Below are positions 22,963 to 48,013 of a DNA stretch of 64,000 nt, piece after piece. Position numbers and translations under genes: made by a program. This DNA comes from Myxococcota bacterium (lineage in GTDB: Bacteria; Myxococcota_A; UBA9042; PHBI01; JAWLBL01). The notes below the pieces were generated by a model. The model was given only the letters and a program-made list of their open reading frames with translations, made no database searches and had not been told where the DNA came from. Numbering within the stretch: the first letter of the stretch is position 1; the number at the start of each line of letters is the position of its first letter. The stretch lies in the NCBI GenBank assembly GCA_041687695.1, contig JAWLBL010000019.1, forward strand, positions 1 through 64,000, written 5' to 3'.

Positions 22963-23772
22963 TCAGGGCCCCGCGGCCGCGGCCGGCGTCGGGTCCTCGG
23001 GCTGCTTGCCGCAGTCGATCGGCTCCTGGACGCACACCTTCTGGGTGCCGGCGTAGCTCTTGTGGTGCTGGACGAAGCACGTGACCTCGTCCCGCCAGGC
23101 GGCGTTCAGCTTGCCCTCGACCTCCATGCGGTTGAAGCAGCCCCACTCGCAGCAGGCGTCCCGCGATCCGTCGGGCCTGATCTTGCACGCGTCGAGGTAC
23201 CCGCAGTAGCTGCGGCACAGGTTCGCCCGGTTCGCGTCGTCGGGATCGTTCGGGCGGATGGTCTTTTCCCAATCGCACAGGGCCGGGTCCACCGGGTCCT
23301 TGCCCTGGAACGACGGCGCCGCGCAGACCTTGATCGCGCCGATGTTCGGGTACAGCTGATCGCCCAGCCAGCGAGGGACGTCGCAGGCCTCCCAGTCCGG
23401 GTTGACGGCGTCGCAGGCGGCCAGATCCGTGCAGCGCGGCACGCAGAACGCGCGCAGCTCGCCGACGAAGGCGGGCGCGTTGGGGTTGGGCAGGTCATCG
23501 AAGCCGACGCAGAGGCTGGCGCCGGCCGCGGCGTCGGGGCCGGCCGGGCAGGCTTCGGCGGTGGCCTCGCAAGGGCGCGTGCAGAAGGGCGTCCCATACG
23601 AGCTGGTCAAGCACACGCCGGCCAGGCAGTCCTCGTCGGCCGAGCAGGGGCCGCCCAGCGGCTGCGGCTGAGCGACCGGGGCGTCGGAGCCGGCGTCGGA
23701 CGGCGGCGGCGAGGGTGCGTCGGACGAGCACCCGACGACGACGAGGGAGGCGAGTAGGGCCAGGCTGCGCAT
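22963..23772 (-). CDS. Cys-rich hypothetical lipoprotein
   Basis: Start MRSLALLASLVVVGC (lipobox); many regularly spaced Cys. Confidence 0.7.
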   Translation of the reverse strand: MRSLALLASLVVVGCSSDAPSPPPSDAGSDAPVAQPQPLGGPCSADEDCLAGVCLTSSYGTPFCTRPCEATAEACPAGPDAAAGASLCVGFDDLPNPNAPAFVGELRAFCVPRCTDLAACDAVNPDWEACDVPRWLGDQLYPNIGAIKVCAAPSFQGKDPVDPALCDWEKTIRPNDPDDANRANLCRSYCGYLDACKIRPDGSRDACCEWGCFNRMEVEGKLNAAWRDEVTCFVQHHKSYAGTQKVCVQEPIDCGKQPEDPTPAAAAGP

Positions 23773-23858
23773 GGCCCAAGCGATGACACGCGGCGCGCCT
23801 CGACGCAAGCGCGGCCGAAGGCGGCCGGGCGTTGTGGATCGTTGGGTGCGGGCGCCGC

Positions 23859-23864
23859 TATACT
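23859..23864 (+). promoter_or_regulatory. -10 box (TATACT) 8 nt before ATG 23873; possible leaderless transcript
   Basis: GCTATACTGCGCGGCCATG with no SD sequence. Confidence 0.45.
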
Positions 23865-23872
23865 GCGCGGCC

Positions 23873-25369
23873 ATGAGCGTGAACCCAGGTCGGAATCTCA
23901 TCGGCGTGTGGGGCGTGGCGGCCGCGGTCCTCGCGGTCGCGGCCTGCGGCGACACCATCACCCTGCTCGAGTGTCCGCCCGGGACCGAGCCGCGCGGGGC
24001 CGAGTGCGTGCCGTGGGGCGCGCCCGACGTCGTGGACGAGCCCGACGGGCCCATCGAGGACGTCGGCGGGCTGCTCGATCTGCCGCTCGCCAAGGACGTC
24101 GCCGACGCCGACCCGGACCCAGGGCCGGCGGACGGCGCCGCGGACTCGACGACGCCCAAGGACACCGCCCCGGAGGTGGACGTCGCGCCGACCCTGGGTG
24201 GCGTGGGCGACGCGTGCGCCAAGGGGTCCGACTGCCTGGACGGGACCTGCCTCGAGTGGGCGGGCGGCTACTGCACGCGCCTGGACTGCAAGGAATCGGG
24301 CTGCCCGGCCGGCAGCCTCTGCATGCCGCTCGAGGGCGGCAACACCGGGTGCATGACCCTGTGCCAGTCCGACGCCCAGTGCCGTCCGGGCGGCGAGCAG
24401 GCCTGCAAGACGGTCCCGGGCCAGGACGGCGCCGGCAAGAGCGTCTGTCACGGCCTCGCGGACGGCGCGGGCGCCATCGGCGCGACCTGTGCCAGCCCGG
24501 CGGACTGCCTCGGACCCGCGACCTGCCTGTCGTTGATGCCGGGAGGCTACTGCGGCGTGCAGCCGTGCGACGCGACGTCGTGCCCGCTCGGGTCGGCCTG
24601 CGTGAAGTACCAGCACAAGCCGACCTGCATGCAGACCTGCGCTTCGGATCTCGAGTGCGAGAGCTCGCCCGACCAGGAGCGGGCCTGCGGCTCTCTGCCG
24701 GACACGGCCAACGTCCCCACCGACGTCTGCCTGTCGGCCACCAAGACCAAGGCCGTCGGCGCCTTCTGTCAGACCAACGTCGAGTGCCAGACGGGGCTGT
24801 GCCAGATCCTGGGCGAGGGGCGCTGCAGCCAGGCCAACACGCCGTGCTTCGGGGACCTGAACTGCCCCGGGCTCCAGTCGTGCCTCATCTCGCTCGAGAA
24901 CAGGGTCGGGATCTGCTCGCAGCAGTGCTCGCTCTCCCTCAAGTGTCCGGGGAACAGCTTCTGCGTGGGGGAGCCGGGCCTGCCGTCGGGTTGGTGCCGC
25001 CCCTCTTGCGAAGGCCTGGGGGATACGGCCTGCCGCCAGCAGGACGGCTTCGAGTGCACGTGGGGCCTGGCCCTCGGGGACACGACCGGAGGGGGTAGGT
25101 ACCTGTGTGCTACGCAGCCCAAGGGGGGCATCGGACAGAGCTGCGAGTCCGCGGACGACTGCGCGACCGGCGAGTGCGCGATCGGGTCGGGGACCTCGAC
25201 CGGGATGTGTCGCGGGCCCTGCAGCGACTACTACTGCCCGTTCCCCGGGTCCTGTGTCGCGGACGCCAGCGGGGGCACCTGCTACAAGGCTTGCGTGGGG
25301 CCCGAAGACTGCGGCCCCGGGTTCAGCTGTCAGCCGATGAGCGGCGCCGTGGGCCAGGTCTGCCAGTAG
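23873..25369 (+). CDS. Cys-rich repeat lipoprotein (GGYC-type repeats)
   Basis: Lipobox VAAC; repeated IG..C....DC...C...GGYC...CP.GS.C modules. Confidence 0.8.
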   Translation: MSVNPGRNLIGVWGVAAAVLAVAACGDTITLLECPPGTEPRGAECVPWGAPDVVDEPDGPIEDVGGLLDLPLAKDVADADPDPGPADGAADSTTPKDTAPEVDVAPTLGGVGDACAKGSDCLDGTCLEWAGGYCTRLDCKESGCPAGSLCMPLEGGNTGCMTLCQSDAQCRPGGEQACKTVPGQDGAGKSVCHGLADGAGAIGATCASPADCLGPATCLSLMPGGYCGVQPCDATSCPLGSACVKYQHKPTCMQTCASDLECESSPDQERACGSLPDTANVPTDVCLSATKTKAVGAFCQTNVECQTGLCQILGEGRCSQANTPCFGDLNCPGLQSCLISLENRVGICSQQCSLSLKCPGNSFCVGEPGLPSGWCRPSCEGLGDTACRQQDGFECTWGLALGDTTGGGRYLCATQPKGGIGQSCESADDCATGECAIGSGTSTGMCRGPCSDYYCPFPGSCVADASGGTCYKACVGPEDCGPGFSCQPMSGAVGQVCQ

Positions 25370-25477
25370 CCCACGCCGGGGGCGCGAGTTGCGGGTGCGC
25401 CTTGTGGCCAGCGAGCGGCACCGCTATGCTCGTCGCCGACCACTCACGCGGCCGATGGTCCAGGGGCGAGGTGTGCG

Positions 25478-27589
<2,112 letters not shown>

Positions 27590-27798
27590 GCGACGAGGCG
27601 GGCGCCGAGCGGCTCGGCGTCCGGACGTGAGGTTACACGCTCGATGGTAAGGACTTGCTGCGACTCGCCGGACCGTGCATCCTTGGCCCAAGCGCAGCAA
27701 CAAGCAGGCATTGACGCTGCGTGGCGCGGCGAGCGCGCGCGACTCGGCCGGTCCGAGGCGCCGAGCGGGGGACAGGCGAGCCTGGAGGGACGGACGGC

Positions 27799-28137
27799 AT
27801 GACCATGGAAACGAAGGGCGGAAAGAAGCTTCCGACGATCAAGCGGTCGGCAGGGGCTTTTCTGTCGGCCGAAGAGGAGCGGATCACGCAGAAGCAGGCG
27901 GACCACCTCGCCGGCTATCTGACGATGGCGGGCAGCGATCTGCCGCAGTCCGGTGACCTGTACGCGCAGCACTGCTCGCACGCGTCGCACGGCTCGCACG
28001 GCTCCCACGGGTCGCACGGCTCCCACGGGTCGCACGGCTCCCACGGGTCGCACGGCTCGCACGGATCCCACGGCTCGCACGGGTCCCACGGGTCACACGG
28101 ATCCCACGGCTCGCACGGGTCGCACGGGAGCTGGTGA
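27799..28137 (+). CDS. His-Xaa-Ser repeat RiPP precursor peptide (HxsA-like), 57-aa leader plus (HxS)18-W core
   Basis: GGAGG upstream of ATG 27799 (alternative ATG 27805); ...DLYAQ-HCS-HAS-(HGS)16-W; directly upstream of radical SAM genes. Confidence 0.88.
   Translation: MTMETKGGKKLPTIKRSAGAFLSAEEERITQKQADHLAGYLTMAGSDLPQSGDLYAQHCSHASHGSHGSHGSHGSHGSHGSHGSHGSHGSHGSHGSHGSHGSHGSHGSHGSW
27970..28131 (+). repeat. 18 x 9-bp coding tandem repeat (mostly CAC-GGN-TCN)
   Basis: 162 bp; the 16 HGS units differ only synonymously (GGC/GGG/GGA; TCG/TCC/TCA/AGC). Confidence 0.95.
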
Positions 28138-28172: not shown

Positions 28173-29582
28173 ATGAACCAGCCGCGGACCGAGCAGTTCA
28201 CGACCTGGACCCAGGACTTCGCCGAGCGCCTGAACGCCGCGGCGGGGGCGCTGCTGGGGTTCGATGGGGGCCGGGTCGTGGTCTCGCCGAGGGCGGACGC
28301 GCGCCCCGGGCTGCTCGGGCGGCTGGTCGTGTTCGTCGAGCTGCCGGACGGGGCGTCGGTCGGCCTCGAGCTGAGTGAGGTCGTCCCCGGCCGGTCGACG
28401 TGGCTGTCCCATCACGGGCTCGGCGTGTCCTACCGGCGCGGACGCGACGGCGCCGATCCGATGACGCAGCCGGCCGCGCGACGCTTCCTCGACGGTGTCC
28501 GGCAGCGCGTGACGTCGCTCACGCCCGAAGCGCTGGCCCGGTCGGTGGCCGGGTTCATCCGGGCGCTCGAGGCCGCTGAGCGCGGCCGCGAGGTCGGCGA
28601 CTGGATGTACCGGCAGCTGTCGATGGGCATCGACGGGCACTACGGGACCCTGCGCCTGGGCTTTCGGTGCAACCAGGACTGCGGGTTCTGCTGGCAGTCA
28701 CGCACCTGGCCCGAGCCCGAGCTCGACGTGTTCATGCGGTGGCTGGACGAGATGGCGGCCGCCGGCGTGGGAGAGCTGACCGTCACGGGCGGCGAGCCGA
28801 CCCTGTACAAGGGCCTGCCCCAGCTGCTCGAGCGCGCGATCCGCGTCCACGGGATGCGGGTGCAGCTGCAGACCAACGCGATCCGGCTGCGAAAGGCCGC
28901 GTTCGTGCAGCAGCTGGTCGACACGGGGCTCGAGTGGCTGTTCGTCTCGCTGCACAGCCCGGACCCGACGGTCTCGGACCGGATGACCCGGGCCCCCGGG
29001 ACGTGGCAGGGGACGGTCGCCGGGGTCGAGCAGGCCCTCGCGCACGGGCTGCGCGTGCAGCTCAACTGCGTGGTCGAGCGGGCCAACCTGGCGCAGCTGC
29101 GCGATCACGCCCGGTTCGTCGTCGAGCGCTTCGTCCGGCCCACCCCGAACAACCCGATCGTGTCGGTCACCTACTCGAACCCGTGCTCTTACTACGACGC
29201 GTCGCTGTGGCAGGACGCCGTGGCGCCGCTGGACGAGGTGGGGCCCGAGGTGCGCGCCGCCACGGCGATCCTGGCCGAGGCGGGGGTCGCCGTCGACGTG
29301 GTCGGCTCCTCGTGCGGCTTCCCGCCGTGCGTGTTCCGAGAGGCGCCCGAGTTCATCGTGTGGGCGGACCGCGCCGAGTTCGACACGATGGACGTGTCGG
29401 GGCGCTTCTTCCCGCCCGAGTGCGACGGGTGCGCGGTGCGCGACCGGTGCCTGGGCGTGCGCCGCGAGTACTACGAGCTGCGGGGCGGGGCGGGGCTGCG
29501 GCCGTTCGACAGCGTGCCCGAGGAGGCGCGCGAGCACAGCGCGCTGGGGGCCATGTTCGCGGCCGAGGCCCGGTCGGCGTGA
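28173..29582 (+). CDS. Radical SAM peptide maturase 1 with a roughly 150-aa N-terminal extension
   Basis: CNQDCGFC, TGGEPT, QTN; C-terminal PPC...CDGCAVRDRCLG. Confidence 0.92.
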   Translation: MNQPRTEQFTTWTQDFAERLNAAAGALLGFDGGRVVVSPRADARPGLLGRLVVFVELPDGASVGLELSEVVPGRSTWLSHHGLGVSYRRGRDGADPMTQPAARRFLDGVRQRVTSLTPEALARSVAGFIRALEAAERGREVGDWMYRQLSMGIDGHYGTLRLGFRCNQDCGFCWQSRTWPEPELDVFMRWLDEMAAAGVGELTVTGGEPTLYKGLPQLLERAIRVHGMRVQLQTNAIRLRKAAFVQQLVDTGLEWLFVSLHSPDPTVSDRMTRAPGTWQGTVAGVEQALAHGLRVQLNCVVERANLAQLRDHARFVVERFVRPTPNNPIVSVTYSNPCSYYDASLWQDAVAPLDEVGPEVRAATAILAEAGVAVDVVGSSCGFPPCVFREAPEFIVWADRAEFDTMDVSGRFFPPECDGCAVRDRCLGVRREYYELRGGAGLRPFDSVPEEAREHSALGAMFAAEARSA

Positions 29583-30487
29583 GCGCGCCGGCGTCCCAGG
29601 GGTGGCGCTGGCTGGAGCTGACGCTGGACTACCGGTGCAACCTGCGCTGCGTGGGCTGCCGGGCCTGCGAGGACACCGGCGAGGCCATGGACCTGCGTGA
29701 GATCGCGGGCCGCCTCGAGGCGGGGCGGCGGCAGGGCATCTCGCGGCTGTGGCTGGGCGGCGGCGAGCCGACGCTGCGCGACGACCTGCCGCGAGTGGTC
29801 GCGGCGGCGCGGCGCATGGGGTACCGCGAGGTGCTGGTGCAGACCAACGGGCTGCGCTTGAGCTACGCGCGGTACCTGGACGCGTTGGTCGCGGCCGGGC
29901 TCACCGACGTCAGCGTGAACGTCAAGAGCGCGCAGGCCGACGTCCACGATCGGCTCTCGGGGCGGCCTGGCGCCCTGGCGCTGCTCGAGCAGGGGCTGGA
30001 GGCCGCCCGAGAGCGCGGACTGGCGCTGCACGCCGACGTCCTGCTGACGCGCTCGACGGCGCCGCAGCTGGTCGAGACCGTCGAACGGTTCGCGGCGCTG
30101 GGGGTGACGCGCTTTCTGCTGTGGCTGCTGTCGGCCAGCGACGTCGCCGACGGGGCGGTCGACGCCGAGATGCCGCACCTGTCCGAGGTGGGGCCGCAGG
30201 TGATCCGGGCGGCGGAGCGCGCCGAGGCGCTGGGCGCTCGGCTACGGAGCCTCCACACGCCGCCGTGCGTGCTGGGCGATCGGGCGGACGTGTACCTGCC
30301 CTCGGCCGAGCTTCGGATGCTGGTGGCCAACCCGGGGCAGGCGCCGTTTCCGCTCGAGCGCTCGCCCATGGAGGGAGGGGCCTGGGTGGCGGCCTGCGAG
30401 GCGTGCGCGGCGCGGGCGCGCTGCGGGGGCCCGCGCGCGGACTACCTGGCCCGGTTCGGCGCGGGCGAGCTGGTCGCGATCCGCTGA
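29579..30487 (+). CDS. Radical SAM peptide maturase 2
   Basis: GTG overlapping the upstream TGA; CNLRCVGC, GGGEPT, QTNG; PPC...CEACAARARCGG. Confidence 0.9.
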   Translation: MSAPASQGWRWLELTLDYRCNLRCVGCRACEDTGEAMDLREIAGRLEAGRRQGISRLWLGGGEPTLRDDLPRVVAAARRMGYREVLVQTNGLRLSYARYLDALVAAGLTDVSVNVKSAQADVHDRLSGRPGALALLEQGLEAARERGLALHADVLLTRSTAPQLVETVERFAALGVTRFLLWLLSASDVADGAVDAEMPHLSEVGPQVIRAAERAEALGARLRSLHTPPCVLGDRADVYLPSAELRMLVANPGQAPFPLERSPMEGGAWVAACEACAARARCGGPRADYLARFGAGELVAIR

Positions 30488-30494
30488 GCGGGGG

Positions 30495-32876
30495 TCAGGG
30501 CTCGGGGGTCTCGAGCTGGGCCGTGGCCACCCGCAGGGGCACGCCGAGGCGGGTCGTCTCGCCGGACCGCAGGGGCGTGAGCGGCTTGTCGAGATCCTCG
30601 GGGTCGATGACCCAGGGCGGCTCGGGGACCTTGTCGAGCTCGTAGAAGCCGCCGCAGAAGATGGCGTGCGGGCAGCCGTGGCACACGGGCTTCCGGACGC
30701 GCCGCTCGGCCAGGTACTCGGCCAGGTTCACGTCCTCGTTGTTCACGAAGATCATGTGGCGCGAGAGCTTGCCGAGGTCGCCCGTCATCCAGCGCTCGTA
30801 GCCGGGCATGAAGCAGAAGGGCAGGTTGATGATCTGCAGCTTCATGCGCTCGTGCCAGCGGTCGATGACGCCCATGGCGATGTCGGCGGCGGCCTGGGTG
30901 TCCGGCGCGATGTGGCTGGTCGCGCGGCCGAAGGGCGTCAGGAACTGGATGTTCAGCCAGCGCAGCCCCAGATCCCAGGCGAGCTGGGCGACGTCCTCGA
31001 GGCGCTTGAAGTTGCCCTTGGTGATGGTGATGTTCATGCCCAGGTCGACGCCGGCCGGGGCGTGGGCCAGGCAGTTGCGGATGCCCTGGACCGACTGCTC
31101 GAAGGCCTCGGCGACGCCGACCTGCTGGGCGTGGCTCTTGGCGTCGGGGCCGTGGATCGAGAAGAGGAGCGTCGTCAGGCCCGAGCGGACGAGCTTGCTG
31201 GCGTACTCGTCGTAGGCGCACAGGCGCCCGTTGGTCGTGACGTTGATGCGGTCGTAGCCGATGCGGCGGGCGTACTTGACGAGCGGGACCAGCTCGGGGT
31301 TGAGCGTGGGCTCGCCGCCGTCGAAGTCGACCATGTGCACGCCCTGGGCGCGGTAGCGGTCGAGGTGCTCGCGCTGGCGGGTCGGGTGGCCGTCGAACTG
31401 GGTGCGGGTGCCGACGGCGCAGAAGGTGCAGTGGTTGTTGCAGACGTAGGTGACGTTGAGGATGACCTTCTGCGGCGCCCGCATGGCCTCGAGGCGCTGG
31501 TCCAGCGTCCACTTGAAGCGGCCGAGGGTCTCGGCGTCGACCAGGGCGCCGGGTTGGCTGGGGCGCGTCTGGAACAGGGGGCCCCAGTCGCTGACCGCCG
31601 GGAGGGGGCCGGCCTCGGCGAGCTGCGTGCCGGGCAGGGGCGTCGCGAACTGGACGGCCGGGTAGGCGCCGAAGCGCTCGTAGAGGTCGAGGGCGAACTC
31701 GAGCGTCAGGTTGATCTCGGTCGCCGTCTCGCCCGGCAAGCCGATGATGTAATGGATCATCAGCGGGACGCCGGCCTCGTGGGCGCTCTGGGCGGCGCGG
31801 ACGATGGCGTTCAGATCGAGGCGCTTTCGGACGATCTCGTCGAGGACGCGCTGGACGCCGCTCTCGGCGCTGACGCTGACCGTCGAGACGAGGCCGCGCA
31901 TCAGGGCGAAGTGGGCGGGCTCGAGGTAGTCGGCCCGCATGCCGTTGGGGCAGTCGAAGCGGACGCCGAGGGCGTGGACGGTCTCGAGGAAGGTGTCCCA
32001 GTGGCGCTCGTTGACGTTGATGAGCTCGTCGATGGCCTCGAGGCGGGTGGCGCCGTGGTCGCGGACGAGGGTGGTCAGGTAGGCGCGCAGGCGCTCGGGC
32101 GAGTAGCGGCGCTGGGTCTTGGGGGCGCCGGGGTCGCGGCCCGGGTTCGAGCTGCAGTGCGTGCAGACGAAGGGGCAGCCGCGCGAGGTGACCAGCGGGA
32201 GCGTGCGGCCGTCGATGGGGAAGGCCCAGGGGCCGCGGCCGAGGTTGCCGACGACGCGGGCCGAGAAGCGGTCGCGGGCGTCGAGGTCGACGAGATCCCA
32301 GGCCGGGAAGGGCAGGGCGTCGAGGCTGGGCGGCGAGACGCCGCGGTGGGTGCCCTCGGGACGCTGGCCGCGGGACACCAGGGCGTCGAGCAGCGCGGGG
32401 ACCGTGACCTCGGCCTCGTACTTCACCCAGGCGGCGGCCTCGGGGTAGCTGGCCAGGACGTCGGGGCCGTGGGCTTCGACGTAGTGCTGGCCCGACTGGT
32501 AGCAGTCCGCCAGGAGGACCGGGGCGGCGGGGAAGGCGTCGGCCAGGCCGGCGAGCAGCTCGCCGAGGACGTCGTCGCGCGCGGGTGGGCGGTGGAAGGG
32601 CGTGTAGGCCACCACGACCAGGTCGGGGGTCGGGCCGGCCGTGGCGGCGGCCAGCACCTCGGAGGTCGGGGCGCCGAGGTGGGCGCGTCCGTCCGGGCGC
32701 CAGGCGAGGGTCGAGCCGGGCAGCGCGTAGGCGTCGACGAGCGTCACGGCGGCGCCGCGTTCTCGTAGCACCGACGCCACCTGCACGGCGCCGAGGTCCG
32801 CCAGATATGGATAGTCGATGAAGTCCCGTGCTATCGTCACGGGCGGATGGATGATGATGACGCGCGGACCCGACAT
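30495..32876 (-). CDS. Cobalamin-binding (class B-like) radical SAM fused to a second radical SAM domain (maturase 3)
   Basis: N-terminal HPP...LG..VA..L...VDA B12-domain-like start; TSRGCPFVCTHC, SAESG, IIGLPGET; second motif CNNHCTFC, DGGEPT, TTNG; PFC...CHGCPHAIFCGG. TATGCT lies 6 nt upstream of the ATG. Confidence 0.88.
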   Translation of the reverse strand: MSGPRVIIIHPPVTIARDFIDYPYLADLGAVQVASVLRERGAAVTLVDAYALPGSTLAWRPDGRAHLGAPTSEVLAAATAGPTPDLVVVAYTPFHRPPARDDVLGELLAGLADAFPAAPVLLADCYQSGQHYVEAHGPDVLASYPEAAAWVKYEAEVTVPALLDALVSRGQRPEGTHRGVSPPSLDALPFPAWDLVDLDARDRFSARVVGNLGRGPWAFPIDGRTLPLVTSRGCPFVCTHCSSNPGRDPGAPKTQRRYSPERLRAYLTTLVRDHGATRLEAIDELINVNERHWDTFLETVHALGVRFDCPNGMRADYLEPAHFALMRGLVSTVSVSAESGVQRVLDEIVRKRLDLNAIVRAAQSAHEAGVPLMIHYIIGLPGETATEINLTLEFALDLYERFGAYPAVQFATPLPGTQLAEAGPLPAVSDWGPLFQTRPSQPGALVDAETLGRFKWTLDQRLEAMRAPQKVILNVTYVCNNHCTFCAVGTRTQFDGHPTRQREHLDRYRAQGVHMVDFDGGEPTLNPELVPLVKYARRIGYDRINVTTNGRLCAYDEYASKLVRSGLTTLLFSIHGPDAKSHAQQVGVAEAFEQSVQGIRNCLAHAPAGVDLGMNITITKGNFKRLEDVAQLAWDLGLRWLNIQFLTPFGRATSHIAPDTQAAADIAMGVIDRWHERMKLQIINLPFCFMPGYERWMTGDLGKLSRHMIFVNNEDVNLAEYLAERRVRKPVCHGCPHAIFCGGFYELDKVPEPPWVIDPEDLDKPLTPLRSGETTRLGVPLRVATAQLETPEP

Positions 32877-32947: not shown

Positions 32948-34801
32948 ATGACGGGTGTGGCGGCCACGAGGCCGACGGCGGAAGGCGGTCACGCCGTCCC
33001 GGTGATGGCGGAGACGCGGGCCGTCCACGAGGAGGCCGCGCACGAGCGCCGCAACTGGGTGCGGCTCACCTTCGACTGCAACAACCGGTGCATCTTCTGC
33101 CTGGACTCGGACTCGCTCGACGGCGACATCCGCGACCGCGAGGACATCCGGCGGCAGATCGTCGAGGGGCGCGACAAGGGGGCGACGCGCCTCATCCTGT
33201 CGGGCGGCGAGCCGACGATCCACCCGCGGTTCATCGAGTTCGTCCGCCTGGGCAAGCGGCTGGGCTACCGCAAGGTGCAGACCGTCACCAACGGACGGCT
33301 GTTCGCCTACCCCGAGTTCCTGCGCAAGGCGCTCGACGCGGGCCTCGACGAGATCACGTTCTCGCTGCACGGTCCCAACGCGCGCGTCCACGACGCGCTG
33401 GTCGGCGTCAAGGGCGCCTGGGAGCAGGAGGTCGAGGGCCTGCGCAACGCGCTGGCCGACGGACGTCCGGTCGTCAACATCGACATGGTCATCAACCGCG
33501 GCAACGTGCGGCACCTGCCCGAGATGATGCGGCTGTACACGCAGATGGGCGTGCGCGAGTTCGATCTGCTGCAGGTCGTCCCGTTCGGGCGCGCGTTCAC
33601 CGAGGGGCGCGAGACCCTGTTCTACGACCTCGAGGAGGCGCGGCCCTACCTGCTCGAGGCGTTCGCCTACGCGCGCAAGCCCGGGATGCACATCTGGCTC
33701 AACCGGTTCCCGCCGCAGCACCTCGAGGGCTTCGAGGACCTCATCCAGGACCCGTACAAGCTCAACGACGAGGTGCGGGGGCGCAAGGAGCAGTTCGAGC
33801 GGCTGCTCGACGCGGGCGTGCCGCTGGACTGCCGCGAGCCGGCGCGTTGCAAGCACTGCTACCTCGAGCCGCTGTGCGACACGCTGGACGAGGTCCGCGA
33901 GGTGGCGGCCGAGGCGCGCTTCGAGGTGCTGCGCGTCGACCCGACGTTCGAGGCGACGTTGCCGCCGGAGATCGGTGGGGATCCGGCCAGCGCGAAGTGG
34001 ATCGAGGCCCAGGAGCGCATGCAGGCCGAGGCGGCGGCGAGCGGCGAGGGCGAGGCGGGGCGGCGGTCGCGCATGGGGCTGCCCATCGTGACGGTGCGGC
34101 CGCCGGCGCCGGCGGTCAGCCTGCCCGAGCTCGCGGCGCGGGCCGGGGCGCGCGCGCTGTGGGTGGTGGCCGCCGATCTGGGGGCGGCGCTGGCCGAGGC
34201 CGAGCGGTTCCCCGGGCTCGCGGAGCTGGAGCTGGAGCTGGCGTCGTACGCGGGGCTGGCCGAGGCGCTCGGCGACGGCGACCGCCTGGGAGACCGGCGG
34301 CTGGTGCGGGCGCTGGCGGCCGACGCTGCCCAGGCGGCCGAGCTGCTGGCCGTCCCGGGGGCCTTCGAGGTCGCGCTGGCGCTGACCAAGGAGAGCGCCG
34401 CGTGGGTGTTGGGGCTCGAGGCGGCGCCGGCGCGGCTGGTGCTGCGACAGCCGACCTACGAGCGCGTCACCGAGGCGCTCGAGCGCGACGTCGAGCCGGC
34501 CTCGCTGTTCCCGCGGCTGCCGCCGGAGGTCCCGGTCGAGGGCGTGCCCCGGTGCATCTCGGGCCGCGCGCCGCGCCCGCGGCCGGCCGTGCTGGACGGG
34601 GCGATGACGGCGCCGTCGGGGCGTCTCGAGATCTTCCGGTACGCGCGGCGCTTCATCGCGTCGCGCTTCGTGAGCAAGTCGCTGCGCTGCCGCGGCTGCG
34701 CCTTCTTCGACGCCTGCGAGGGGGTGCACGTGAACTACGCGCGCGCGCACGGCTACGGCGTCCTGCAGCCGGTCCCGGCGACCGAAGGGGGCACGTCGTG
34801 A
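32948..34801 (+). CDS. Radical SAM peptide maturase 4 (long form)
   Basis: CNNRCIFC, SGGEPT, VTNG; internal DC...CKHCYLEPLC; terminal PRC...CRGCAFFDACEG. Start could be ATG 33005. Confidence 0.9.
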   Translation: MTGVAATRPTAEGGHAVPVMAETRAVHEEAAHERRNWVRLTFDCNNRCIFCLDSDSLDGDIRDREDIRRQIVEGRDKGATRLILSGGEPTIHPRFIEFVRLGKRLGYRKVQTVTNGRLFAYPEFLRKALDAGLDEITFSLHGPNARVHDALVGVKGAWEQEVEGLRNALADGRPVVNIDMVINRGNVRHLPEMMRLYTQMGVREFDLLQVVPFGRAFTEGRETLFYDLEEARPYLLEAFAYARKPGMHIWLNRFPPQHLEGFEDLIQDPYKLNDEVRGRKEQFERLLDAGVPLDCREPARCKHCYLEPLCDTLDEVREVAAEARFEVLRVDPTFEATLPPEIGGDPASAKWIEAQERMQAEAAASGEGEAGRRSRMGLPIVTVRPPAPAVSLPELAARAGARALWVVAADLGAALAEAERFPGLAELELELASYAGLAEALGDGDRLGDRRLVRALAADAAQAAELLAVPGAFEVALALTKESAAWVLGLEAAPARLVLRQPTYERVTEALERDVEPASLFPRLPPEVPVEGVPRCISGRAPRPRPAVLDGAMTAPSGRLEIFRYARRFIASRFVSKSLRCRGCAFFDACEGVHVNYARAHGYGVLQPVPATEGGTS

Positions 34802-35856
34802 CGACCGCCGAGGCCAGCGCCCTCGGGCGCGAAGAGGTCGTCCAGCGCATCCAGACCCGGCAGGAGCGCATCCACGTCGCCATCGGCCCGGTCTGCAACA
34901 ACAACTGCATCTTCTGCATGGAGGAGGACCGCGTCGCGCGCGAGGTCGTCAACGGCTCGATGACCCCCGAGCGCGTGCGCCGCATCCTCGAGGCGAGCGC
35001 CGGGTCCGAGGAGGTGTGCTTCACCTCGGGCGAGCCGACGATGGTCGCCGAGCTGCCGCGCTACGCCCGCTGGGCGCGGCGCCTCGGCTACCGGCGCGTC
35101 AGCGTGATGACCAACGGCCGGCGCCTGTCGCACGCGCCCTACGTCGAGCACCTCGTCAAGGCCGGCATCAACTTCTTCTATGTCTCGATCCACGGCCACA
35201 CGCAAAAGCTCCACAGCGGCCTCGTTCGCGAGCCGGCGGCCTTCGAGCAGACGGTCGCCGGGCTCGACAACGTCTCCGCCTACAAGCGCGAGGGCGTGAC
35301 CCTGCACACCTCGACCGTGGTCACGCGGCGCAACGCCCCCTACTTCGCCGAGATCTATCGGTTCTTGCGCTCGCACGGCGTCGATCAGGTGGTCTTCAAC
35401 GTCATGCAGGCCAACGGCCGGGCCCACACCTACTTCGAGCAGCTCTTCCCGAAGTACACCGACATCGCCGCCGGCTTCGCCGCGTTCCTGAAGGACGAGC
35501 CCGAGCAGCCCGCGCAGGCCTTCCTGGTCGACATCCCGCTGTGCACGACCACGAACCTGCCGGACTTCAACCGCGGCTACGTCGAGCGCTACCTGCACTA
35601 CGAGCCCAAGGGGTTCCAGCAGCTCGAGCTCGGCGAGCGCGACGCGCCGGCGCCGGACGACGACCTCGTCGCGGTGACGCGCGCCGACCTCGACCGCAGC
35701 GAGCGCCTCAAGCGCCCCGAGTGCGCGAGCTGCCGATACGAGCCCGCCTGCGAAGGGGTCTGGAAGAACTACCTCGCCCGGTACGGATGGGACGAGATGG
35801 TCCCGGTCCCGCACCCGGCCGCGCCCGACGACGCCGCGAGGGCCACGCCTACGTGA
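34798..35856 (+). CDS. Radical SAM peptide maturase 5
   Basis: GTGA overlap; CNNNCIFC, TSGEPT, MTNG; PLC...CASCRYEPACEG. Confidence 0.9.
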   Translation: MTTAEASALGREEVVQRIQTRQERIHVAIGPVCNNNCIFCMEEDRVAREVVNGSMTPERVRRILEASAGSEEVCFTSGEPTMVAELPRYARWARRLGYRRVSVMTNGRRLSHAPYVEHLVKAGINFFYVSIHGHTQKLHSGLVREPAAFEQTVAGLDNVSAYKREGVTLHTSTVVTRRNAPYFAEIYRFLRSHGVDQVVFNVMQANGRAHTYFEQLFPKYTDIAAGFAAFLKDEPEQPAQAFLVDIPLCTTTNLPDFNRGYVERYLHYEPKGFQQLELGERDAPAPDDDLVAVTRADLDRSERLKRPECASCRYEPACEGVWKNYLARYGWDEMVPVPHPAAPDDAARATPT

Positions 35857-37652
35857 CGACGTCGGCTCGCGAGCGAGCGCCTCGGGTCGCAAGCGAGGTG
35901 GCCGTCGTGGCCGTCGAGGGGCCGTGCAACGACCGCTGCGTCGTCTGTCCCGTGCCCGAGCCACGACGCGTGGCGCCCGCCCAACCGGCCGCCGTCGCGG
36001 CCAGCCTCGCGCGCGCGGTCGCCCAAGGGGCCGACTCGGTCGTGTTCGCGGGCGGCGAGCCGACCCTGCTGCCGCGCTTCGTGGAGCACGTGCGGGCCGC
36101 GCGTCAAGCGGGCCTGGCGGTCGGCGTCGTCACCAACGGGCGCATGTTCGCCTACGCGCGGCTCGCGCGGGCCGCCGCGCGCGCGGGCCTCGGCTCCGCG
36201 ACGGTGGCGGTCCACGGGCCCGACGCCGCGACCCACCAGGCCGTCTCCCGCTCCGAGGGCTTCGACCAGGCGCTCGAGGGGGCGCGCCACCTGGCCGCCT
36301 GCGGCGTCGAGGTGACGCTGCGGCTGACCCTGCTCGCGGCGTCGCTCGACCGACTCGCCGACCTGCCGGCGCTGCTCGATCGGACGGGCGCCGCCCGGCT
36401 GGCGCTCGAGCTGCCCGATGCGGTCGAGGAGGGGGTCGAAGTCGCGCGGCGCGACGCGGCCGAGGTGGCCGTCGCGGCGCTCGTCGACCGGTTCGCGCGG
36501 TCGAGGCTGTCGGGGCGGCTCGACGTCGCGGCGCTGCCTCCGTGCTGGACCGGCGGCGCCAGCGGCGGCGTCGCGCTCCGGCCAGGCGCGGTGTTCGCGG
36601 CCCCGTGCGCCGACTGCTCGCTCCGCAGCCGCTGCCCCGGGCTGCCTGCGGCGATGGTCGACGCGCTCGGAGACGCGGCGGTGGCCCCGTTCCGCGTGGT
36701 CCGCTCGAACTCCTTCAACCTCGTGCCCCGGCAGCGGCTGGACTGGCCGGCCGGCACGCCGTGCCCCTTGCTGGTCGGGGCGCCCGCGCCGCGCTCGAGC
36801 GCCGACCGCGCGATCCACCTGCGCTCGGACGGCGCGCTGGTTCGCCACGAGACGACGACCGGCGACTTCGTCGACGCCGAGCTGCGGCGGGTCCTGCGCG
36901 ACTCGGGCCAGCTCTACGTCGACGTCAGCGACAAGGACGCGCCCGACGACTTCGCCGCCGACCTGCGCAAGCTGGTCGTGGCCACCGAGTGCGACGAGTG
37001 CCCTCGCCAACGCCGCTGCGGCCGCGCGTGGCAGGTCGACCAGCGCGATGTCTTCGGCGCCGACGACGCCCTGGTCGCGCAACGCATCGCGACGCTGAGC
37101 GGCGACGTGCTGGACGTGGGCTGCGGGCATGGCCCCTACGGCGAGCTGCTGGCGCCCTTGGCGAGCGGCGGCGCGCTGCGCTACGTCGGCCTCGAGCCCG
37201 ACGAGGCCCGGGTCCGCGAGCTGCGGGCGCGGTGGCCCTGGGCGACCCTGATCGCGGCCACCGCCGAGGAGGCACGCTTCGCGGAGGCGTCGTTCGATCA
37301 CGTGCTGATCCTGAGGAGCTACAACCACCTCGCGGCGCCTCGCGCGGTGCTGGCCGCCGTCACGCGAGCCCTGAGGCCGGGCGGGACGCTGCTGGTCGTC
37401 GACAACGAGGCCTTCGGGTTGGTCCGGACCCGCGAGGCGGCGGCGCGGGCCGAGGCCGGGTCGGCCGAGCACGAGCACTACCGCAACGACGGCGCCGCCG
37501 AGGCGCTCGAGGCGATGCGCGGGCTGCCGCTGACGCTGCTCGCGCGCGCCGACGTGGGGCCGGCGACCAGCAACCAGTGGCTGCTCCATCTGCGCAAGCA
37601 CGATGGCGACGCGGCCGCGCCTTCCTTGCTCCGGGGCGAGTCGGTGGTGTGA
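35853..37652 (+). CDS. Radical SAM / class I SAM-dependent methyltransferase fusion (maturase 6)
   Basis: GTGA overlap; CNDRCVVC, GGEPT, VTNG; CADCSLRSRCPG and CDECPRQRRCG; C-terminal VLDVGCGHG, FDHV, LRPGG methyltransferase motifs. Confidence 0.88.
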   Translation: MTTSARERAPRVASEVAVVAVEGPCNDRCVVCPVPEPRRVAPAQPAAVAASLARAVAQGADSVVFAGGEPTLLPRFVEHVRAARQAGLAVGVVTNGRMFAYARLARAAARAGLGSATVAVHGPDAATHQAVSRSEGFDQALEGARHLAACGVEVTLRLTLLAASLDRLADLPALLDRTGAARLALELPDAVEEGVEVARRDAAEVAVAALVDRFARSRLSGRLDVAALPPCWTGGASGGVALRPGAVFAAPCADCSLRSRCPGLPAAMVDALGDAAVAPFRVVRSNSFNLVPRQRLDWPAGTPCPLLVGAPAPRSSADRAIHLRSDGALVRHETTTGDFVDAELRRVLRDSGQLYVDVSDKDAPDDFAADLRKLVVATECDECPRQRRCGRAWQVDQRDVFGADDALVAQRIATLSGDVLDVGCGHGPYGELLAPLASGGALRYVGLEPDEARVRELRARWPWATLIAATAEEARFAEASFDHVLILRSYNHLAAPRAVLAAVTRALRPGGTLLVVDNEAFGLVRTREAAARAEAGSAEHEHYRNDGAAEALEAMRGLPLTLLARADVGPATSNQWLLHLRKHDGDAAAPSLLRGESVV

Positions 37653-43547: not shown

Positions 43548-44063
43548 TCAGCGCCGGAAGTAGTCGACGTGATCGATGGGGTCGAACTGGGCGAGGCGCT
43601 CCTGGCGGCCGAGCAGGGGCTGGCCACCGGCGAGGCGCTCCTCGGCCCCGGCGAGCTGCCGGGCGACCTGACGGACGAGGGCGACCTCGTCGTCGGGCGT
43701 GCGCCGCTGGCCGTCGCCGCCGTCGTTCATCAGGAACAGGTCGACGCGACCGGTGCTGGCGATGGCGCGCGAGTTCGGCTCGGCCGCGCAGATGCCGATG
43801 TTCGCCTGACGGCCGCTGGCCGCGTGGCGCGCCACGACGCGCAGGGCCCCCGCCTCGACGCCCGTGACCTCTTCGACGGCCCAGCCGTCCTCGAGATCGA
43901 GCCCACCCGGCAGGGCAGCTCGCACTTCGGCGGTCAGCGCGGCGCCGGGCGCAGCGGCGCGCGCCGCGCTGGGCAGGTTGGCCAGCACGAGGCCGGCGGC
44001 GGACGCGGCGATGAAGGTTCGCCGGTCGAGCCCGTTACTCTGGTCCTTTTGGCCGGACATCAC
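43548..44063 (-). CDS. Small Tat-exported hypothetical protein
   Basis: DRRTFIAASAAGLVLA twin-arginine signal with an ARA cleavage site; divergent from the second rSAM operon. Confidence 0.75.
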   Translation of the reverse strand: MMSGQKDQSNGLDRRTFIAASAAGLVLANLPSAARAAAPGAALTAEVRAALPGGLDLEDGWAVEEVTGVEAGALRVVARHAASGRQANIGICAAEPNSRAIASTGRVDLFLMNDGGDGQRRTPDDEVALVRQVARQLAGAEERLAGGQPLLGRQERLAQFDPIDHVDYFRR

Positions 44064-44331: not shown

Positions 44332-45090
44332 TTGGCGCAGGGGCTGACAGAGGCGCCGATCGTCAGGAGCGGATACGGGTGCAACAGCGCCTGCCGCTTC
44401 TGTGATCAGGGCGATTGGCGGACCACCCGTGGGGACCGCGCGGCCGACGAGGTCGCCGACGCGGCCGTTCGCGCGGGGCAGGGCGGCGGCGTGGTCGTCT
44501 TCTCGGGCGGCGAGGTGACGATGCGGCCCGAGCTCGCCGAGTGGGTCAGGCTCGCCCGAGGCGCCGGCGCCAAGCGCGTCCTCGTCCAGACCAACGGCCG
44601 CATGCTCGCCTACCCGGGGGTCGCGCAGCAGCTCCGCGACGCCGGCGTCGACGTGTTCGCCGTGGCGCTGCACGGCCACGTGGCCGAGCTGCACGACTGG
44701 CTGACCCGCACGGAGGGCAGCTTCGAGCAGGCTGTCAAGGGCGTGCGGCGGGCGCGGCAGGCCGGCGCGTCGATCATCGTCAACACGGTCGTCACGCGGC
44801 CGGGCTATCGGCACCTGGGCGAGATGGCGGCGCTCCTGTTCGGCGCGCTGGGCGCCTCGGGCTGGCGCCTCATCTGGCCGCGTCCCGAGGGCGAGCTGGC
44901 CGGCGGCCCCGCCGGCCTCACCCCCGAGCCCACGCTGGTGGCGCCGCACGTGGCGCGCGCCCGCGCCATCGCCGAGCGCGCCGGCAAGCGCCTGTGGCTC
45001 GAGCTGCCGGAGGCCGCGCTGGCCCCGGCGGCCTCTCCGGGCCCCGCACCCGAACCGGCCGAGGAGTCCTCCGATGTCCGTGTCGCCTGA
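44332..45090 (+). CDS. Radical SAM protein 7 (short, no C-terminal auxiliary Cys motif)
   Basis: TTG after AGGGAG; CNSACRFC, SGGEVT, QTNG, LHG...HD.LT...GSF. Confidence 0.82.
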   Translation: MAQGLTEAPIVRSGYGCNSACRFCDQGDWRTTRGDRAADEVADAAVRAGQGGGVVVFSGGEVTMRPELAEWVRLARGAGAKRVLVQTNGRMLAYPGVAQQLRDAGVDVFAVALHGHVAELHDWLTRTEGSFEQAVKGVRRARQAGASIIVNTVVTRPGYRHLGEMAALLFGALGASGWRLIWPRPEGELAGGPAGLTPEPTLVAPHVARARAIAERAGKRLWLELPEAALAPAASPGPAPEPAEESSDVRVA

Positions 45091-46816
45091 GACGAGCGCC
45101 CCGCGCCCCGGACCGCGCGCGGTCATCGACGAGGAGATGCAGGCCGAGCTGGCCCGCGCCCTCGAGGTCAAGGACCTGACCAAGGAGGCCGCCGTCAAGC
45201 ACGCGCGGCACTGGGTCCGCCTGACGCGCCTGTGCAACCAGCGCTGCATCTTCTGCCTCGACTCGTGGAACCACAACGGGACCTACGTCGATACGCAGCA
45301 GCTGATGCAGTACATCGATCTGGGCAAGGCGCTGGGCCGCGAGCGGCTCATCCTGTCGGGCGGCGAGCCGACCATCCACCCGGACTACGTCAAGCTGCTC
45401 AAGCACGGCAAGAAGGCCGGCTACGACTGGATCCAGACCGTCACCAACGGGATGATGTTCGCCTACCCCGAGTTCGCGCGCCGCTGCATCCAGGCGGGGC
45501 TGAACGAGGTGACCATCTCGATCCACGGCCACACGCCCAAGCTGCAGGACCGCCTGGTCGGCGTCCCCGGCGCCTTCGACAAGGCCATCGAGGGCATCAA
45601 GAACATCCAGGCCCTGTCGGGCGGGCGGACGGTCGTCAACATCGACGTCGTCATCAACAAGCAGAACGTGCCGCACCTGCGCGAGATCATCGATCTGTTC
45701 CGCGGGATGGGCATCCACGAGTTCGATCTGCTGTACATCGTCCCCTTCGGGCGCGGGTTCTCCGAGTACCGGTCGCAGCTGTACTTCGACCTGGGCGAGC
45801 ACTACGACGATCTCCAGCGGGCGTTCGAGGTCTCGAAGGAGCCGGGGGTCTACATCTGGACCAACCGGCTGCCGGTCGAATACCTCGAGGGCTACGAGCA
45901 CCTCATCCAGGACCCGCACAAGCTGCACAGCGAGGTCCAGGGCGGGTTGCACAACTTCCAGGGCTACCTGGAGATGGGCACGCCGCCGGACTGTCACGGC
46001 GAGCGGTGCGGCCACTGCTTCCTGAAGGGCCTGTGCCACGATCAGATGTTCGAGTACCGGCAGCGGCTCGAGGCGCGGGCGTTCGACCGGGTGCGGGTCG
46101 ATCTCGACGTGCCGGTGCCCAGCACGCGGGCGGCCATCGCCCTGGACACGCAGCGCCCGCGCGTCGTGCACGTGCAGGGGGCCGACGCCGCGGCGATTCG
46201 CGAGTGGATCGAGGGGCATCCGTACCGTGACGAGGCGTACGCGCCCGAGCTGGTGGCCGAGCCGCGCGACGAGGCGACCAGCGCCGAGCTGATGGACGAC
46301 GCGGGCCTGGCGCGGGTGGTCGCCAACACGCCGGCGGCGCTCGAGCGCTTGCTGGCCGCGGCGCCCGAGGGCCGGGGGCCGGCGGTCGAGGCGCGGCTGA
46401 CCGCCGAGACGGCGCGCTGGCTGCAGGACAACGAGCCCCTGGCGCGCCCCTGGATCGAGGCCGACCGCCTGGTCGGGCACCTGCCGAACTTCGAGTACGT
46501 CTCGGGCGTGCGCGACAACGGCGTCGGCGGCGACGAGCTGCGCGCCCTGGCGGCGATGGGGCTGCGGCTGATGAACGTCGCGCCGTGCATCGGCGGGGCC
46601 AAGGCCGAGCCCGGCGCCCACCACGCCCTGTCGCGCGACATGCTGGACGACAAGGGGCGGCTGTCGGTCACCCCGTACGTGCAGCGCTACATCGAGGGCG
46701 AGTACTACAAGAAGAGCCTGCGCTGCCGCGGCTGCGCGCTGACCGAGACGTGCCGCGGGATGCACATCAACTTCCTGCGCGCCCACGGGTTCGCCCAGCT
46801 CCAGCCGGTCGGGTGA
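45074..46816 (+). CDS. Radical SAM peptide maturase 8 (paralog of maturase 4)
   Basis: GAGGAG RBS; CNQRCIFC, SGGEPT; DC...CGHCFLKGLC; KSLRCRGCALTETCRG. Confidence 0.92.
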   Translation: MSVSPETSAPRPGPRAVIDEEMQAELARALEVKDLTKEAAVKHARHWVRLTRLCNQRCIFCLDSWNHNGTYVDTQQLMQYIDLGKALGRERLILSGGEPTIHPDYVKLLKHGKKAGYDWIQTVTNGMMFAYPEFARRCIQAGLNEVTISIHGHTPKLQDRLVGVPGAFDKAIEGIKNIQALSGGRTVVNIDVVINKQNVPHLREIIDLFRGMGIHEFDLLYIVPFGRGFSEYRSQLYFDLGEHYDDLQRAFEVSKEPGVYIWTNRLPVEYLEGYEHLIQDPHKLHSEVQGGLHNFQGYLEMGTPPDCHGERCGHCFLKGLCHDQMFEYRQRLEARAFDRVRVDLDVPVPSTRAAIALDTQRPRVVHVQGADAAAIREWIEGHPYRDEAYAPELVAEPRDEATSAELMDDAGLARVVANTPAALERLLAAAPEGRGPAVEARLTAETARWLQDNEPLARPWIEADRLVGHLPNFEYVSGVRDNGVGGDELRALAAMGLRLMNVAPCIGGAKAEPGAHHALSRDMLDDKGRLSVTPYVQRYIEGEYYKKSLRCRGCALTETCRGMHINFLRAHGFAQLQPVG

Positions 46817-46822
46817 CCGCGG

Positions 46823-48013
46823 ATGGCGAACATCGGCTACATCCAGGTCGTCCGGCACTGCAACCACTTCTGCGGGTTCTGCTCGAACCCCACCACGCCC
46901 TACGTCCACACCTTCGAGACGATGAAGGTGCTGGTCGACGACTTCGTCCGGCGCGGCTACTTCGGCGTCATCCTGACCGGCGGCGAGCCGACCCTGCACC
47001 CCGAGCTGCCGCGCATCGCCGGCTACGCGCGCGACCAGGGGCTGCACGTGCGCATGATCACCAACGGGTGGCGGCTGGCGGACCCCGACTTCGCCCGCGA
47101 GCTGGCCGAGGCGGGCCTGCAGCACGTGCACGTGTCGGTCTACTCGGTGCGACCCGAGGTCGAGGCGCAGCTGCGAGGGCTGCCGAAGACGCTCGACAAG
47201 GCCTTCGCGGCCGTCGACAACGCCTACCGCTTCGGGCTGACCGTCGACGTCAACTGCGTCATCAATAGGCTCAACGCCGACCACCTCGACGAGAACATCC
47301 GCTACTGGATGACCCACCACCCGCAGGTCCGCCACTTCGTGTGGAACAACCTGGACCCGTCGATGGGGCGCGCCGAGGTCAACCAGGACCAGTACACGCC
47401 GCGGCTGGCCGACTTCGAGGCGTCGCTGTATCGCGCGCTGCGCCTGCTGCACGGGTCGGGGCGCACCTTCCGCGTCGAGCGCGTGCCGCTGTGTTACATG
47501 GCCGAGTTCGCCTGGGCCAGCACCGAGACGCGCAAGATCGTCAAGGGCGAAGAGCGCATCGTGCACTTCCTGGACGCCAAGCAGACGGTGCGCCAGACCG
47601 ACTGGGGGCACCACTACGACAGCGCCTGCGACGTGTGCTCGGTGCGCGGCATCTGCGGCGGCCTGTACGACAAGGGCGGGGCCTACGACCCGGCCGAGCT
47701 GGCGCCGCTGTTCGTGTCGCCCGACGCCATCGTCGAGCACATCATCACCGACCCGAGCGACCCCAGCTATCGGCTGCGGACGCTGGCCGAGTGGAAGGCC
47801 GACTTCGAGGCGCGGCGGCAGGCGCAGGTGAAGGCCGCCGCCGAGGCCGAGGCGCGGCGCAGCGTCGCGGGGCTGTCGGTCGGGGTCGTGACCGAGGAGG
47901 GGCAGCGCCTGTTCGAGAAGAAGCGGAAGGCCGAGGCCAAGATGGCGGCGCGGCTGGGCGTCGCGCAGGAGCGCCAGGATCGGCCGGACGCGGCGGGCGA
48001 GGGGGCGCCGTGA
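46823..48013 (+). CDS. Radical SAM peptide maturase 9
   Basis: CNHFCGFC, TGGEPT, ITNG; PLC...CDVCSVRGICGG. Confidence 0.92.
   Translation: MANIGYIQVVRHCNHFCGFCSNPTTPYVHTFETMKVLVDDFVRRGYFGVILTGGEPTLHPELPRIAGYARDQGLHVRMITNGWRLADPDFARELAEAGLQHVHVSVYSVRPEVEAQLRGLPKTLDKAFAAVDNAYRFGLTVDVNCVINRLNADHLDENIRYWMTHHPQVRHFVWNNLDPSMGRAEVNQDQYTPRLADFEASLYRALRLLHGSGRTFRVERVPLCYMAEFAWASTETRKIVKGEERIVHFLDAKQTVRQTDWGHHYDSACDVCSVRGICGGLYDKGGAYDPAELAPLFVSPDAIVEHIITDPSDPSYRLRTLAEWKADFEARRQAQVKAAAEAEARRSVAGLSVGVVTEEGQRLFEKKRKAEAKMAARLGVAQERQDRPDAAGEGAP

Follow-up and report, generated by a model that had tools for sequence, protein, structure and literature searches.

Why does a bacterial genome encode a peptide of which almost half is an uninterrupted run of His-x-Ser (HxS) triplets, and what could such a peptide be for? 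The question is raised by a short gene in a 64,000-nucleotide stretch of Myxococcota DNA (hereafter the window), which we analyzed together with the remainder of its genome and with related genomes.

The HxsA4 precursor and its repeat array

Translation of the open reading frame at positions 27799-28137 (plus strand) gave a peptide of 112 aa, and the 57-aa leader ending in DLYAQ, the 54 periodic residues and the terminal Trp that an earlier note on this DNA had described were all exact. A Shine-Dalgarno sequence recognized by its letters (GGAGG, 27784-27788, plus strand) lies 10 nt upstream of the ATG. The leader (27799-27969) carries the family motif KLPxxK...FLSxEE and has no hydrophobic core, its best 11-residue hydropathy mean being 0.57; a prepilin-like cleavage site after FLxxEE(G) is a conceivable candidate. 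The remaining part (27970-28137) encodes the core of 54 aa (162 bp), that is, 18 triplets in the order HCS, HAS and 16 HGS, followed by Trp and the stop codon. The core contains neither Arg nor Lys, and its computed charge is about +13.5 at pH 5.5 and +1.3 at pH 7. We rejected the alternative frames of the array, which read as TAR/TGR, LAR/LPR or PCD/PWE repeats or run into a stop, and which lack the conserved leader. A promoter scan around the precursor returned zero promoters; its one terminator-like site, on the minus strand, was weak and close to what shuffled sequence gives. In a six-frame translation of the whole 7.97-Mb genome, the precursor array was the only place with at least three HxS units in a row; a looser HxS pattern occurred at five further places, none with a regular HxS array. 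The gene is thus the genome's single precursor of the HxsA4 type.

The peptide scored 128.6 bits against the NCBIfam model of HxsA4 (NF038313, cut-off 55) and is therefore a member of this family, while it fell below the cut-offs for HxsA3 (46.5 against 65) and HxsA2 (31.8 against 48). This match and the HxsC-type radical SAM genes next door bore out the earlier reading of an HxsA-type precursor adjoined by radical SAM enzymes. We then collected homologues from 59 relative loci and the window, counting identical copies once. The 45 distinct matches comprised 35 complete precursors (the window's included), eight broken by gaps or contig ends, and two spurious two-triplet matches. The family hallmarks were found in both parts of the peptide, with the leader motif LPxxK...FLSxEE seen in an alignment of 20 precursors and the core HCS-(HxS)n-W in the 35 complete homologues; all 35 begin with HCS, which the search pattern required, and finish with Trp. 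Triplet number ranged from 7 to 59 with a median of 17, and 28 of the 35 had 15-19. The comparison of leaders and repeat counts that the earlier note had proposed therefore came out in favor of a conserved leader, but for HxsA4, in which 18 is typical, its statement that such peptides usually carry just a few HxS units does not hold. Among the 646 triplets of the 35 precursors there were 582 HGS, 35 HCS, 22 HAS, 5 HGQ and 2 HSS. The Cys and the Trp were invariant across the 20 aligned precursors, and in a wider search Cys was replaced by Met or Leu in other relatives, so that a thiol-specific enzyme is unnecessary family-wide. Judged by sequence, the peptide is an ordinary HxsA4 member, in which HCS...W is the family template and the long pure core the family standard; HxsA4 is an already catalogued family and the peptide is unsurprising inside it.

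Some relatives retain a hydrophobic, signal-like stretch in the leader (11-residue mean up to 2.1). The nearest neighbor of a leader came from the same taxonomic family in 27 of 33 cases and from another family in 6, the 10 of 43 leaders that had no same-family partner being left out of this count. A protein search with the leader alone, which is insensitive, gave one match among one candidate. Several unusual precursors were also seen. Two were outsized as assembled, at three times the norm, namely L059:4878-5591 (genome G036) with 59 triplets and L096 with about 50. Variants starting with HMS instead of HCS occurred at L088, L109, L114 and L125, two of these records being labelled Candidatus Binatia, and L114 held up to four precursor copies at one locus.

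The nucleotide sequence of the array carried traces of both its growth and its constraint. The 16 HGS units consisted of seven distinct 9-mers, and every difference between them was synonymous: His was CAC throughout, Gly was GGC, GGG or GGA, and Ser was TCG, TCC, TCA or AGC. Single-step alleles in the HGS units were synonymous in four cases and residue-changing in none, against an expectation of 7 synonymous among 27 single changes (p about 0.005). An exact 18-bp period ran over units 4-9 (lag-2 identity p = 0.02), which indicates that slippage built part of the array. The earlier note had argued for retention at the protein level and not slippage; retention stands on the synonymous-only changes, but the exclusion of slippage does not, since both are visible. 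Slippage thus accounts for part of the array's growth, and selection at the protein level then filtered the result. That the array or its length is instead an artefact of assembly or slippage, meaningless at the protein level, seems extremely improbable. Such a reading could draw on the 18-bp period and on the eight homologues that end or carry N gaps within the array, but exact internal repeats reach at most 47 bp, less than one read length, and N is absent from the whole window, so gross assembly error is unlikely; moreover, the variation is synonymous throughout, the terminal Trp and leader are conserved, and most homologues fall in the same narrow range of triplet number. The exact number of 18 could deviate by a unit or two, but the feature is real.

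Radical SAM genes in the window and elsewhere in the genome

Six radical SAM genes, HxsC4 and five HxsC-like, follow the precursor. The first two, both on the plus strand and both below cut-off, encode a 469-aa HxsC-like protein with about 150 additional N-terminal residues (28173-29582; below the cut-offs of HxsC and HxsC4) and one of 302 aa (29579-30487). The third, on the minus strand (30495-32876), encodes by profile matches a two-domain enzyme in which an N-terminal B12-binding radical SAM methylase-like part, itself sub-cut-off, precedes an HxsC-like part. The next three are on the plus strand: an HxsC-like enzyme that carries a second CxxCx5CxG at the end of its C-terminal extension (33005-34801; profile matches below cut-off), HxsC4 itself (34798-35856; NF038332, 545.3 bits, cut-off 500), and a fusion of an HxsC-like radical SAM domain with a class I SAM methyltransferase domain (35853-37652; profile matches below cut-off). 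A second group, also on the plus strand and 16-21 kb from the precursor, consists of three HxsC-like radical SAM genes (44332-45090, 45074-46816 and 46823-48013; below cut-off) and a gene for an aKG-HExxH-type peptide beta-hydroxylase (48010-49218; TIGR04267, 92.6 bits, cut-off 40) that is related to ChlH (E 2e-6). Of the window's nine HxsC-like genes, only HxsC4 reached a cut-off; the other eight fell below those of both HxsC and HxsC4, and these two models were still the best matches of the five beside the precursor. None of the nine is a canonical HxsC as in the E. coli HXS system, the best score against that model (TIGR03977) being 90 with a cut-off of 267.9.

The neighborhood held further genes. 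A small 170-aa protein encoded on the minus strand (43548-44060) has a twin-arginine-like N-terminus, an invariant Cys and an N-x-G-x-G-like motif, and in 8 of 40 relative loci one of its relatives is encoded close to HxsA4 or HxsC-like genes. It matched no family, and its best Atlas score was 0.79; from its sequence we regard it as a candidate exported accessory of the system. Upstream of the precursor, on the plus strand (23771-27589), are two Cys-rich lipoprotein-like genes, one with four PF11617 repeats; the pair holds this place in three same-order genomes, probably by synteny only. The flanking genes appear by sequence to encode housekeeping-like enzymes and Cys-rich repeat proteins, and neither a metal transporter nor a dedicated peptidase was recognized beside the precursor. 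We also considered a horizontally acquired island and rejected it, as the G+C content in the window (0.67-0.78) brackets the genome-wide 0.73 and no integrase was recognized among the called genes.

The remaining partners of the type 4 set were found elsewhere in the genome. HxsB stands alone on contig C1 (TIGR03978, 532 bits, cut-off 370), and HxsD (TIGR03976, 72 bits, cut-off 50) lies together with an HxsD-like gene (NF038315, 63.5 bits, cut-off 41) at 93.5-94.2 kb of the precursor's own contig (C19), 66 kb from the precursor. With HxsC4 the set is complete, and all five models (NF038313, NF038332, NF038315, TIGR03978 and TIGR03976) pass. The core template and repeat number also match the HxsA4-type set, from which the peptide shows no difference, whereas its partners are dispersed and do not form one operon; the system genes occupy at least four chromosomal places. 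A profile built from the window's nine HxsC-like domains and run on the genome raised the number of HxsC-like genes to 15, nine in the window and six outside (G000:C12:76928-78745, C12:82465-85449, C19:162033-163721, C50:1873-2817, C55:314-1555 and C6:187343-188248). Two of the six have tandem domains, and a precursor was recognized near none of them. We infer their link to the HxsA4 peptide, and some of the 15 enzymes may have other substrates. Structure prediction gave low values: a complex of HxsB with precursor residues 1-66 received a score of 0.01 (mark 0.32), too low to count either way on binding, and AlphaFold2 modelled HxsC4 from its single sequence with a pLDDT of 41.

Co-occurrence and inheritance among relatives

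We searched 61 genomes of the same order and class, the source genome included. HxsA4 was above cut-off in 40 and HxsB in 48. HxsC4-like matches were present in 48 of the 61, the two-domain enzyme (30495) in 35 and the hydroxylase in 28; the enzyme at 33005 was matched in 45, by matches common to its paralogue at 45074. All 40 genomes with HxsA4 had HxsB above cut-off, and 39 of these 40 had an HxsC4-like match. Eleven of the 61 genomes lacked all six queries, and so the hydroxylase was matched in none of these 11. Eight genomes had HxsB without a full HxsA4 match; three of these (G028, G044 and G060) do contain a precursor, but one interrupted by a gap or the end of a contig. The parts of the system occur all-or-none across relatives; these counts overstate the co-occurrence because the relatives are not independent, and they describe rather than test it. 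In the phylum as a whole, the HxsA4 model passed its cut-off in 63 of the 201 genomes that were at least 90% complete, and its distribution was patchy by family, with 0 of 21 in family f24 and 10 of 11 in f12. It was found in none of 14 control genomes, and no cultured isolate was among the Myxococcota records of the 73 loci.

Gene order was loose. Of 40 relative loci, 14 included HxsB along with the precursor, while 10 full 20-kb loci showed no HxsB and no HxsC-like match near it. In family f12 (L039, L040, L042, L047 and L048) the precursor has no maturases beside it and immediately precedes a set of cytochrome c maturation (ccm) genes, and the upstream gene in these loci has a weak CobW-like match (E 2e-4); by sequence, this context may be chance synteny or a hint of a metal link. 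A carbamoyltransferase gene near the precursor in three relatives (L021:10150-11781, L027:1800-3404 and L059:8759-11605) could possibly encode a further tailoring enzyme.

In a tree of 62 HxsC-like domains, 9 of the source genome's 15 had a well-supported sister group from other genomes, and the paralogues are thus old and have been retained. We did not accept strictly vertical inheritance, since the closest relatives of three cluster enzymes in the tree come from a different order (genome G046) and those of 6 of the 33 leaders from a different family. The all-or-none inheritance, the scattered genes and the old paralogues suggest that the role of the system in Myxococcota differs from, or goes beyond, mobile phage defence.

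Proposed maturation and function

In the available text of the study of the E. coli HXS system (PMC13128918), HxsB, HxsC and HxsD are needed for the processing or cleavage of HxsA, a periplasmic, peptidoglycan-binding protein with a signal peptide and five basic HxS repeats that delays the entry of phage DNA. A single +8 Da change (+C/-4H) on HxsA was mapped to SHRSS, one of the five repeats; HxsA was not recoverable from deletion strains, so the change is tied to no enzyme, and in vitro reconstitution failed, HxsA being insoluble. By the same account more than 99.8% of HXS systems are four-gene sets. The two systems are alike in their HxS-repeat substrate, their HxsB and HxsD families and their HxsC-type radical SAM partners, but they differ in the 112-aa peptide with 18 neutral triplets, the approximately 15 HxsC-like genes, the methyltransferase domains and the HExxH hydroxylase found here. 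Neither the compact hxsD-B-C-A unit nor the signal peptide and peptidoglycan-binding domain of the E. coli system has a counterpart: HxsB and HxsD are far from the precursor, the domain is absent, and the leader lacks a hydrophobic stretch. A term search of the main text of that study returned neither HxsA4 nor Myxococc-, and our literature search, which left most subscription journals outside its coverage, found no study on HxsA4.

Other radical SAM peptides offer further chemical precedents, as far as the available text of each source goes. Minviopeptin contains a His5-Ser7 cyclophane in an HAS motif, made by MicB (PMC12912966); HaaB and YhhB make links from His-C2 to a Cbeta, that of Ala being the target of HaaB (PMC11002830); and enzymes of the aKG-HExxH type add hydroxyl groups to His and Asp of cyclophane peptides, as in the ChlBH system (PMC12636437). 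Like the triceptides, the present system has aromatic-x-x triplets with His first, a radical SAM/SPASM enzyme and a ChlH-related aKG-HExxH hydroxylase. However, HxsB falls outside the known cyclophane-forming families, scoring far below their cut-offs (YhhB 61/445, AmcB 55/425 and GrrM/OscB 49/310 bits) and being only distantly related to ChlB (E 3e-6), and the cross-links of HxsA4 are predicted. TvgA/TvgB, a radical SAM system that makes poly-cyclopropylglycine on the motif TVGG, likewise acts on a precursor built from repeats of a short motif, with modifications at several of them, but its motif and chemistry are different, and TvgA has one maturase where a large paralogue set is found here; that paper attributes the His-Xaa-Ser motif to Haft and Basu (PMC9062424).

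That the HxsA4 peptide would be a substrate of the Hxs machinery is well supported by its family and by co-occurrence, and the large radical SAM set probably modifies HxsA4 peptides in many uncultured myxobacteria. We consider it rather likely that the product is a leader-directed HxS polymer carrying multiple radical SAM modifications. In the proposed pathway the leader would recruit HxsB and HxsC/HxsD-type complexes, which would act in trans because their genes are scattered. Radical chemistry would then take place on the His-x-Ser triplets at several, not necessarily all 18, sites, the most plausible products being three-residue cross-links from His to Ser, one-carbon additions like the +C/-4H of E. 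coli HxsA, or both. The B12-type and class I methyltransferase domains would add methyl groups and the HExxH hydroxylase a hydroxyl group, and some HxsC-like paralogues may be devoted to the two end triplets, which are distinct (HCS at the start and HGSW at the end). Removal of the leader would release a 5-kDa polymer with up to 18 imidazoles at fixed spacing. A point against this best explanation is that about 15 enzymes face a core with three kinds of triplet. A C2-linked imidazole retains both nitrogens; a rigid rod and a metal-binding array are therefore compatible with each other and not alternatives.

For the job of the matured peptide, we tentatively favor a polyvalent imidazole ligand for metal ions in core physiology, as read from the sequences. 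This role is preferred because the core carries little net charge at pH 7, because the peptide has neither the anchoring domain nor the export signal known from E. coli HxsA, and because the gene set is scattered and lineage-wide. Narrowly behind it we place an anti-phage effector as in E. coli, possible but doubtful, in which the peptide would leave by non-canonical export and its protonated poly-His core would bind or block incoming phage DNA. Defence is the sole function demonstrated for any Hxs system, in the available text of PMC13128918. HxsB and HxsD pass the same family cut-offs here, the core is strongly positive at pH 5.5, some relatives keep a signal-like leader stretch, and the distribution in the phylum is patchy by family. 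On the other hand, a core without Arg or Lys differs from E. coli repeats rich in basic residues, and genes scattered among housekeeping genes at genome-average G+C differ from four-gene sets (PMC13128918). Nor is there a peptidoglycan-binding domain or a hydrophobic leader core, and PADLOC, whose library is older than HXS, gave generic viperin-radical SAM matches only, for 3 of 11 proteins.

A structural role, in which Gly at every third position would allow a collagen-like or polyglycine-II assembly to be cross-linked into cell-envelope or granule material, appears unlikely. The core does match Pfam Collagen (PF01391, 35.3 bits, cut-off 27.2), Gly is the middle residue in 582 of the 646 triplets, and the nearest ESM Atlas clusters (scores 0.85-0.88), which serve as leads only, are labelled collagen and occur most often in Myxococcota. 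PF01391, however, scores any Gly-X-Y run, so this match follows from composition alone; a triple helix is stabilized by Pro or charged pairs, of which the core has none; and a small middle residue would also fit a strained three-residue ring. Other Hxs precursors, moreover, have middle residues other than Gly (HSS and HRS, in the wider homologue search and in PMC13128918).

Beyond the metal-ligand role, a wider and still doubtful reading is that large parts of the uncultured Myxococcota keep about 15 anciently diverged radical SAM enzymes with methyltransferase and hydroxylase domains, housekeeping-like and scattered, whose single (His-Gly-Ser)15-19 substrate would become an imidazole polymer dense in cross-links. 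Such a polymer would belong to core physiology, for example by storing metal, holding a cofactor or forming part of the envelope. If this were true, the compact anti-phage HXS cassette would be a small specialized relative of a much larger ancestral system. The peptide has a value of its own as a test substrate for Hxs chemistry, being 112 aa long with a uniform core on which each modification should be countable by mass.

HxS repeats were also met outside the precursors. A search for longer fused forms gave four matches among 8000 scored, through HxS-like repeats, one of them with a leader-like N-terminus; these matches weigh little either way. Two proteins of about 400 aa, P0004 and P0005, carry HxS/HGS repeats at both ends; the C-terminus of P0004 is a Pfam PF13884 domain, and the C-terminal stretch of P0005 looks Hint-like by its motif. 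HxS repeats may also occur in self-cleaving, possibly phage, proteins.
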